Source: Verrucomicrobiota bacterium (GTDB lineage: Bacteria; Chlamydiota; Chlamydiia; Chlamydiales; SM23-39). Taken from it: 64,000 nucleotides of DNA. The notes under the pieces are model-generated. The model did no database searches. It was given only the letters and a program-made list of their open reading frames with translations, and was not told the DNA's origin. This document shows, piece by piece, positions 17,058 through 18,784 of the stretch. The stretch lies in assembly GCA_018968815.1 (NCBI GenBank), contig JAGWZL010000001.1:61178-125177 (forward strand), read 5' to 3'. The position numbers and the translations under genes are program-made. Within the stretch, counting starts at the first letter, position 1, and the number at the start of each line of letters is the position of its first letter.

Positions 17058-18620
17058 TTAGTATAATTGTACAATGGTGACATAAGCAGGGGTAGTGCCT
17101 GTAGTGCTTGCGGATACGTTGCTGACCGTTCTAGGAGCTCCAGTTGTGTTGACGACTGTGAGAGTAGAAGTTGTCGTCAATTGCACAATCGTAGTTAGGC
17201 TCGTCAATTCAGAGCCGGATATGGGTACAGATAACTCGAGAATTTGTTGGGCTGGAGCCGCTGCTCCGTTGATTTCTAAGGCCCAGGCGTACGTTAATGT
17301 GGCTGTGCTTGTTTTTGGAAAGATCCCAAAGCAGACTTGATAATATCCGGTATTCGAAATGACAATATTGCCATTGGTTGTATTGAGAGAGATCAAGCTA
17401 CCCGCCGGTTGATTTGTGATACTGTTGAAGGAAATTTGAGCACCATTTGCGATCGGTATTCCGGAACTTGTGGATTGGGTCAGGACGACCGCAGCAAAAT
17501 CGGTGAAGGCGGGACCTGTCGGCCCAGTAGGACCCGTATTTCCTGTCGGCCCAGTTGGACCCGTTGCCCCGGTAGGTCCAGTTGGACCGGTTGCACCTGT
17601 AGGTCCGGTCGGACCGGTTGCGCCTGTAGGCCCCGTCGGACCTGTTGCGCCTGTTGGCCCCGTCGGACCTGTTGCGCCTGTTGGCCCAGTGGGACCTGTT
17701 GGTCCCGTCGGACCCGTCGGACCTGTTGGACCTGTCGGACCCTGTAGGCCAGTCGGTCCAGTAGAACCTGTTGAACCTGTTGGACCGGTCGGTCCTGTCG
17801 GACCTGTTGGACCAGTAGCGCCGGTCGGTCCAGTCGGACCTGTTGGACTTGCGCTATCAGGACCTGTCGGACCGGTCGACCCTGTAGGTCCAGTCGGACC
17901 TGTTGGACCGGTGGGGCTGACAGCATCTGGACCCGTTGGACCTGTCGGACCTGTTGGGCCAGTCGGCCCCGTCGGTCCAGTCGGACCGGTCGGTCCAGTC
18001 GGACCTGTTGGACCGGTTGGGCTGACAGCATCTGGGCCCGTTGGACCTGTCGGACCTGTTGGGCCAGTTGGACCCATCGGCCCCGTCGGACCTGTCGGAC
18101 CGGTAAGTCCAGTCGGTCCGATCACACCTTGGGGACCTGTTGGACCCGTCGGCCCCGTCGGACCTGTTGGCCCTGTGAGCCCCGTCGGCCCCGTCGGACC
18201 TTGCGGCCCTGTTGGACCGGTTGGTCCCGTCGGCCCAGTTGGACCTGTTGGGCCATCAGGACCTGTTGGGCCTGTTGGACCCGTTGCGCCTGTTGCACCG
18301 GTGGGGCCGGTGGGTCCAGTAGGGCCGGTGATTCCAGTTGGACCTGTTGCGCCGGTTGGACCTGTTGGGCCTGTCGGACCGGTAGGTCCTGTGCTGGTCG
18401 TACAGCCGCCGGCTGGACCTGTGGGTCCTGGAGGGCCTGGTTTAGAAGCGGGGGGACATTTGGAAGCGAGCACAAATGCATTGAGCGGGAGCGTCGCGAA
18501 GCAAAGCCAAAGGGTCAAAGAGCGCACACGCTTGCGAAACACCAGATTGCCATTGTTGAACGGGAGTGGTAAATTGTATGGGCTTCCCCGGTTTTCAATC
18601 AAGAAAATTTGTATACACAA
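17058..18620 (-). CDS. Collagen-like protein with BclA/C1q-like C-terminal domain (CLP-C)
   Basis: Its leader is near-identical to that of CLP-B ('[41 protein letters not shown]'). Long GPT tracts precede a C-terminus ending '[10 protein letters not shown]'. The track start at 18620 is a TTG inside the palindromic element, and the GTG at 18542 is plausible. Confidence 0.85.
17511..18437 (-). repeat. 9-bp-periodic G-P-T-encoding repeat tract (CLP-C)
   Basis: Same periodic structure. This is the most regular of the three tracts. Confidence 0.9.
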
Positions 18621-18784
18621 ATGAACTCAAAAGTTGGGTTTTGGCTGCGCCGGACATCCACATGTTTGGAGCCGCCTGCATCGCTCAACTTATTCAAGTT
18701 GAGCTGCTTCGGCGCCGCTTCGCTGCCCCAAACATGCGGCGCCGGCTTTGCCAAATTCCCAACTTTTGAGTTCATTTGTGTATA
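18612..18784. mobile_element. 173-bp MITE-like palindromic element
   Basis: Perfect 27-bp terminal inverted repeats: tatacacaaatgaactcaaaagttggg at 18612-18638 and its reverse complement at 18758-18784. The interior is itself an imperfect palindrome with the central hairpin gctcaactt-attc-aagttgagc. The outermost TA on each side could be a target-site duplication. Confidence 0.55.

Follow-up and report, generated by a model that had tools for sequence, protein, structure and literature searches.

Bacterial miniature inverted-repeat transposable elements (MITEs) derived from IS630/Tc1-mariner transposons, such as the Nezha elements of cyanobacteria, are short non-coding sequences with terminal repeats of ~25 nt, a TA duplication and IS630-related ends, and they occur in many, mostly intergenic copies. 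The Correia elements (NEMIS) of Neisseria measure 100–170 bp, with terminal repeats of ~26 nt, a TA duplication and a full-length hairpin; they often lie between genes, can create promoters or RNA processing sites and, to our knowledge, have no identified parent transposase. Here, an element resembling both was analyzed at positions 18614–18782 of a 64,000-nt stretch of contig JAGWZL010000001.1 (Verrucomicrobiota bacterium, assembly GCA_018968815.1), hereafter the window. It is very probably a non-autonomous IS630-type MITE of a family found in Chlamydiae-type bacteria (Planctomycetes–Verrucomicrobia–Chlamydiae, PVC), moved in trans by an IS630-family transposase, with a short fragment at 35165–35199 as the eroded end of another copy. 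Compared with the Nezha type as generally known, it shares all the features named above, and differs in its distinct sequence family, in its hosts, which are metagenome-assembled genomes (MAGs) of Chlamydiae type, and in being palindromic over its whole length. The likeness to Correia elements in size, terminal repeats, TA duplication and full-length hairpin is one of form, with no sequence relationship expected, and, unlike them, the present family has IS630-family relatives. Literature searches for a chlamydial MITE or IS630 element yielded nothing relevant and no description of this family; what is new is the sequence family, whereas elements of this sort, and how they move, are already well known. 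The reading builds on family membership, on the TA duplication within the family and on the homology of the ends to IS630-family ends; mobilization in trans and a local consequence are inferred.

The element is 169 nt long and is flanked by TA on each side (18612..18613 and 18783..18784, the two copies of a putative 2-bp target-site duplication), giving 173 bp at 18612–18784. The arm TATACACAAATGAACTCAAAAGTTGGG at 18612–18638 returns as its reverse complement at 18758–18784, so that two 27-nt arms with 100% complementarity are separated by 119 nt; leaving out the TA, the terminal repeats are 25 nt. No match to the 27-mer arm at up to 3 mismatches was found in 100 shuffles of the window. The B-end repeat (18614..18638, + strand), on the side of a collagen-like operon, reads TACACAAATGAACTCAAAAGTTGGG then TTTTGGCTGCG, and the A-end repeat (18758..18782, − strand), on the side of a glycosyltransferase gene termed GT2-TPR, continues inwards with AATTTGGCAAAG. 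The non-coding interior (18639..18757) is an imperfect palindrome with an inner pair of 18 nt at 83% complementarity and a central hairpin GCTCAACTT-ATTC-AAGTTGAGC at 18683–18704. In its minimum free energy structure, a 187-nt stretch formed one long hairpin at −102.1 kcal/mol; shuffled sequences gave −49.1 ± 4.5 (z = −11.8). The perfect terminal repeats, the palindromic interior and the folding of the whole into one hairpin had all been put forward in the original prediction, and all three held. The element has no coding capacity, only spurious open reading frames (ORFs) cross it, and an Rfam scan of 18300–19100 with E up to 10 matched no family. A role of the hairpin as an intrinsic terminator was dropped, with no terminator-like site in a scan of 18450–18950 and no U-run after the hairpin.

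Further copies were sought by exact-core scans with a 19-nt core, covering one genome per species as well as metagenomes. The genome scan gave 21 loci. At 18 of these, the terminus TAC(A/C)(C/G)AA stands ahead of the core, identity ends abruptly there and the flanks differ; the remaining three (L011, L014 and L018) look like chance matches. The metagenomes added 60 loci. Complete elements, defined by pairing arms within 420 nt, amounted to 42 distinct sequences of 77–311 nt, most of them from MAGs of Chlamydiae type, with sharp left and right boundaries and unrelated flanks, and the dispersal that the original prediction had read from a single extra arm was thereby borne out as a multi-copy family. 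The main size classes are 160–161 nt and 168–171 nt, with deletion forms down to 77 nt; minimal forms (L005, L022, L075) are barely more than two arms. The window copy belongs to the 168–171-nt class together with L053, L081, L072, L070, L038 and L073; interiors homologous to its own are found in these six, in L059 and in a nested copy in L085. Arm positions 11–24 are nearly invariant among the 42 members. Within the 161–171-nt class, the window copy has the stablest fold, −106 kcal/mol compared with −74 to −92 for the others; since its arms are also perfect, a comparatively recent insertion fits these data.

Variation in length is also seen at a fixed position. L028:7967-8076 (110 nt) and L026:9099-9257 (159 nt) occupy one insertion site with an identical 200-nt left flank in two different assemblies, and the pair is read as an internal-deletion polymorphism. 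Solo arms in L002, L004, L006 and L008 are truncated or minimal forms, beside which only unrelated genes and no transposase were found. Larger members occur as well: in L006, elements of 227 nt (553-779) and 250 nt (2954-3203) flank an ankyrin-repeat gene (787-2805), and this pair and L060 carry extra internal hairpin modules (GGGGTCCCCGAAGACGCATCGTCTTTGGGGTGGG), and the interiors of the family are therefore modular.

The host MAGs are labeled Parachlamydiales, Rhabdochlamydia or Rhabdochlamydiaceae, 'uncultured Chlamydiae', Verrucomicrobia(e) or 'uncultured bacterium', and one single MAG among the last (SRP193066_co1_78) has the core on at least 7 contigs. Cultured chlamydia-related genera were absent from the matches of the exact-core scan, and neither viral contigs, searched with the exact arm core, nor plasmids and phages, searched with the whole element, gave a match. 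The proteins of the window are labeled 'Verrucomicrobia/Verrucomicrobiota bacterium' at NCBI, but the few GT2-TPR homologues with a source name bear Chlamydiales names, which point to a chlamydia-type organism; the taxonomic labels of several MITE-bearing MAGs may likewise hide chlamydiae. With respect to genes, the elements are mostly intergenic, 34 of the 42 overlapping no ORF of at least 100 aa by more than 30 nt. The family has these defining features of MITEs: less than ~500 bp without a transposase gene, terminal inverted repeats, dispersed copies with unrelated flanks and, at the family level, a target-site duplication.

Evidence for that duplication comes from the family as a whole. 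Of the 42 elements, 35 have TA outside the left terminus, 38 outside the right one and 32, like the window copy, outside both, while TA makes up 4% of the dinucleotides in these loci. Positions 1–3 of the element (TAC) are nearly invariant and the positions beyond the flanking TA are random. Since TA is itself palindromic, these counts alone cannot separate a duplication from the end of the repeat, and the original prediction was right to regard the TA of a single copy as compatible with a duplication but not decisive. The question is settled by an insertion in a gene. L085 contains a pseudogene of an IS630-type transposase that is split by a 170-nt element. The interior of this element and that of the window copy are homologous (mean column identity 78%, four-way alignment). 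Taking out the element and one TA yields ...GFFSLISSLTSESELGQCFRNRIRDKFRPISAP, in frame and of the same length as intact homologues (...GFFAALSTLAAESVLGQDFRSRVRDKFRPISAP), whereas the frame is broken when both TAs are kept. Since only the removal of the element with one TA restores the frame, the TA is a true 2-bp duplication. In addition, the protein P0130, a fragment of a transposase, continues without a break as the translated arm YTQMNSKVG, which indicates that a family member was inserted at the TA of a TAT codon. As reconstructed from these junctions, TA is duplicated on insertion at the level of the family.

The ends of the element lead to the IS630 family. The link starts from L043, a TA-flanked decayed element of ~2.5 kb, one end of which equals the window arm at 20/20 nt before being cut by an IS110-family insertion, while the other end agrees with the window arm at 19/25 positions (20/25 with the TACCC arm variant). 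Between these ends lie an 89-aa remnant that matches DDE_3 weakly (E = 0.005) and a PDDEXK_3 gene. Proteins related to the remnant are without exception short fragments, and their domains are HTH_33 and DDE_3. L086 contains a frameshifted full-length transposase gene, and its conceptual repair, used as a query, returned thousands of relatives. The best 120 listed are nearly all intact transposases of 342–351 aa, mostly on contigs of 1–2 kb; these proteins (P0146–P0265) have the Pfam domains HTH_29, HTH_33 and DDE_3, and a D...D-35-E spacing was read from their sequences.

Six loci with intact IS630-family transposases were inspected. The insertion sequences in L089 (1119 bp), L091/L092 and L093 (1206 bp each) and L088 (1680 bp, with a PDDEXK_3 cassette), with the transposases P0259, P0249, P0229 and P0146, respectively, are the four with both ends readable, and TA flanks all of them. 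They resemble the MITEs in these flanks, in ends starting TAC(A/C)... and in the kinds of metagenomes in which they occur, and differ in their length of 1119–1680 bp, in carrying a gene for a transposase of 345–351 aa and, in some cases, in the extra PDDEXK_3 gene cassette. Their right ends are identical to the MITE arms at 14–19 of 25 positions and their left ends at 9–14 of 25; the right end of L093 and the A-end of the window copy also have the subterminal sequence GGGAATTT in common. The nested element of L085 has hybrid arms, in which the first 14 nt equal the left end of L089 and are followed by the MITE core. Taken together, the MITE arms and the IS630-family ends form one homologous series. 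The TA insertion with a 2-bp duplication and the associated HTH and DDE_3 (DD~35E) transposases place the family among IS630/Tc1-mariner derivatives. The search for an IS630-like transposase with matching termini, proposed with the original prediction, gave intact TA-flanked relatives with 14–19/25 matching positions at the right end and the decayed L043 element with the MITE arm itself.

Some further observations were made on these insertion sequences. The IS110-family element that cuts the arm in L043 (1150-2812; transposase ORF 1402-2580, − strand, 392 aa, DEDD_Tnp_IS110 and Transposase_20) is inserted directly after ...GAACTCAAAAG, with a similar junction ...TTCAAAAG|CTTGG at its other end, and in L091 an IS110-family gene lies just upstream of the IS630-family element. 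The L043 junctions and this neighbor suggest that IS110-type elements may target these arms sequence-specifically. The PDDEXK_3 gene (GxxExxY-type) is located inside IS630-family elements near the right end (L088:3567-4055, L043:425-835, L085:3544-3879, L086:1116-1544, L090:3216-3545); the L088 copy has inverted repeats of its own on either side (53 nt, 87% complementary). The gene resembles a small passenger cassette and recurs in at least 5 loci. Finally, in L091 (1835-1870) and L092, which have the same sequence, a right-end-like CCAATTTTTGAACTTCCTGAATA lies immediately upstream of the left end of an intact IS630-family element, with only TA between them. Tandem copies or a circle-junction-like arrangement could account for this, as could the way in which a multi-copy element was assembled.

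All 42 members of the family fold as long hairpins far stabler than shuffled sequences, with z from −5 to −25 and a median of −10. RNAalifold, applied to a 13-sequence alignment of the 161–171-nt class, gave 49 pairs, 11 of them with two-sided changes, which include terminus positions 4–5 (TACAC/GTGTA, TACCC/GGGTA, TACCG/CGGTA). Moreover, the central hairpin, CTCAACTT/AAGTTGAG in the window and CACCTGCC/GGCAGGTG in L085, has a wholly different sequence at the same position, framed in both by the conserved motifs CTGCATCGC and GCTGCTTCG. These data, with the full-length hairpin kept across subfamilies, would suit a structured RNA in dispersed copies, acting as a cis-regulatory hairpin or as a small RNA gene; its hairpin would be the functional unit, and its transposon-like ends would be a side issue or the mark of a co-opted MITE. 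We regard this as improbable, since the TA duplication and the IS630 end homology account for the dispersal, no Rfam family was matched, and both halves of a palindrome in DNA can change in concert without selection on RNA. Furthermore, the orientation relative to neighboring genes was the same in 26 cases and the opposite in 29, and tandem, divergent and convergent gene arrangements all host elements; this absence of bias and of a preferred arrangement disfavors a strand-specific RNA role. The upkeep of the hairpin possibly reflects selection on structure (as single-stranded DNA in transposition, or as RNA), a change of both ends in step with transposase specificity, or concerted evolution of the palindrome halves. 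Selection of the family for its full-length hairpin seems unlikely. If it did operate, the elements would be modules of structured RNA or DNA comparable to the Correia elements of Neisseria, with possible roles as RNase III processing sites, transcript stabilizers or portable −35 boxes, and at this locus the insertion would govern how strongly the glycosyltransferase is expressed compared with the collagen-like surface-fiber operon.

The remaining explanations concern the way in which the palindrome came to this place. An operator or attenuator of the divergent collagen-like and GT2-TPR promoters, specific to the locus and not mobile, would agree with a position exactly between two divergent genes and beside promoter-like sites, and the original prediction held that a lack of copies elsewhere, together with a palindrome conserved in position in all relatives, would favor it; 42 complete elements were found instead, and the presence of the same sharp-ended element beside unrelated genes in dozens of loci and many assemblies leaves this explanation almost no credit. 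Just as little can be given to a repetitive extragenic palindrome or bacterial interspersed mosaic element (REP/BIME) spread by a REP-associated tyrosine transposase (RAYT) of the IS200/IS605-like Y1 type: the element is indeed a small, repeated, intergenic palindrome, but it has 160–170 nt with 25-nt terminal repeats rather than a 20–40-nt unit, it lacks the GTAG or CGTC head and shows a TA duplication, and the linked protein remnants are of DDE_3 and not Y1 type. A full-length insertion sequence that lost its transposase at this very site, without ever moving as a short element, would be in line with the existence of a deletion intermediate (L043) and of the internal-deletion variants of L028 and L026 at a single site. 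It is nevertheless very unlikely, since the same 168–171-nt architecture with a homologous interior is found at many unrelated sites, so that the short form must have transposed, and the interior of the window copy holds no transposase-coding remnant. A non-autonomous IS630-type MITE is therefore preferred.

A second site of the family in the window starts at 35165. The arm core AAATGAACTCAAAAGTTGGGT occurs exactly at 35165–35185 on the + strand (0.01 chance matches expected for a 19-mer), with 21 nt identical to the arm, and the family arm profile extends the match to 35165..35199 with E = 8e-7, that is, ~30–35 nt with the terminal TACAC missing. The fragment sits just downstream of the stop of a − strand ORF at 35201..36064 (stop codon 35201–35203), and the near-identical assembly GCA_028873315.1 has it as well. 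The identical 21-nt copy had been noticed in the original prediction, where the distance from the stop was given as 16 nt instead of 15 nt; rather than a 'solo arm', the site is better called a truncated end fragment of 30–35 nt. A whole decayed element reaching into the ORF was rejected, as the full-length profile matches only weakly up to 35307 and no hairpin fold is found (z = −0.33). The site is treated as a truncated end fragment and would be the eroded end of another copy of the family.

The window copy is located mid-way in the 315-nt divergent intergenic region between two sets of genes, a region that would be 144 nt without the element and one TA. On one side, the − strand carries three tandem collagen-like genes between 13960 and ~18542 (E = 1e-31 to 1e-39 for Pfam Collagen), the first of them at 17058..18542 (E = 2.7e-39) with its likely start at GTG 18542, ahead of a signal-peptide-like sequence. 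On the other side, the GT2-TPR glycosyltransferase gene occupies 18858..20051 on the + strand (Glycos_transf_2, E = 1.6e-13), most likely starting at ATG 18858 behind AAGAGG. The overlap of the element with the longest possible start of the collagen-like ORF, pointed out before, does exist at TTG 18620; this is so only since the arm read outwards holds TTG/GTG, and GTG 18542 is the likelier start. The arm (18609–18640) offers ATG inwards and TTG/GTG outwards, and ORF finders consequently extend genes into the element, with recurrent overlaps of 7 or 11 nt.

Consensus scans revealed a promoter-like TTGATT-18-TACAAT for the collagen-like operon at 18573..18602 (− strand), 9 nt outside the TA of the element and ~25 nt upstream of the collagen-like start, and a second site facing GT2-TPR, TTGCCA-17-TAAATT with a TG before the −10, at 18547..18575 (+ strand), which the element separates from the GT2-TPR gene. 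Transcription starting at the latter candidate site would run through the whole hairpin. The standard consensus scan found no promoter-like site in the 73 nt that lie between the end of the element and the start of GT2-TPR. A relaxed scan gave a weak hybrid site at 18766..18794 (+ strand), below the standard threshold and with 8 of 12 matching positions, composed of a −35 TTGAGT in the arm, a 17-nt spacer and a −10 AAAAAT in the flank. From these matches, the collagen operon probably keeps its own promoter-like site, and GT2-TPR is probably transcribed either through the hairpin, with a 5' leader of ~276 nt, or from the weak hybrid site. The original prediction had suggested that the element may supply or disrupt regulatory signals, and it is these consensus matches that bear on it.

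Taken as a sequence of events, the 25-nt terminal repeats would be the binding and cleavage sites of an IS630-family transposase (HTH-DDE_3, DD35E) that would be supplied in trans and would insert the element at a TA dinucleotide with duplication of the TA. This copy would have landed in the ~144 bp that then separated the divergent collagen-like operon and GT2-TPR gene. The promoter-like site on the collagen side would have been left intact beside the element, and GT2-TPR would be transcribed through the −102 kcal/mol hairpin or from the weak hybrid promoter with the −35-like hexamer of the arm.

Several points weigh against this reading. The 64 kb of the window contain only one full copy and one fragment of the family, and tblastn with the transposases found no transposase there. 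None of the six inspected loci has an intact insertion sequence whose ends equal the MITE arms exactly; in such a partner, TACACAAATGAACTCAAAAGTTGG would be expected to bound the transposase gene. Being palindromic, the TA could formally be part of the repeat in this single copy. The empty site predicted for the window locus, with a single TA, is ...CAAGAAAATTTG-TA-TGACAAAAATTGC..., and a flank-pair search among the retrieved loci gave filled sites only; the GT2-TPR and Bro-N proteins of the window, also used in looking for it, had no entry on record. The assembly GCA_028873315.1, which matches the window at 99.99% identity over 7.4 kb, breaks at the collagen genes and ends at GT2-TPR paralog 1, giving no view of an empty site. 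All promoter statements are consensus matches alone.

Other features of the window were recorded around the element. Two GT2-TPR paralogs, at 12744–13943 and 18858–20051, bracket the collagen-like genes (12744–20051 in all), and among 5.8 billion collected proteins no relative of the second GT2-TPR protein exceeds 64% identity. At 25479–26501, 6.7 kb from the element, a protein with a Bro-N domain (E = 2e-8) is encoded, a domain typical of phage and virus genes, and its gene adjoins one for a 1253-aa inverse-autotransporter-like protein (21495–25256). Farther away, 37948–39446 (L082:1503-3001) holds a ParA/CbiA-like gene and, after it, one for UPF0137, the chlamydial pGP6-D family; such a pair is known from plasmids and chromosomes of chlamydiae and likewise points to a chlamydia-type organism.

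Classical chlamydiae are almost without repeats, and environmental chlamydia-like bacteria gain with these elements a defined MITE family tied to an IS630-type parent. The elements break metagenome assemblies, as seen in several matches at contig ends, and they cause false ORF starts and fill protein databases with meaningless peptides, the translated arm quoted above being one example. In addition, they mark recent genome rearrangement. At the locus described here, a recent-looking insertion may have rewired a glycosyltransferase gene beside a collagen-like surface-fiber operon.

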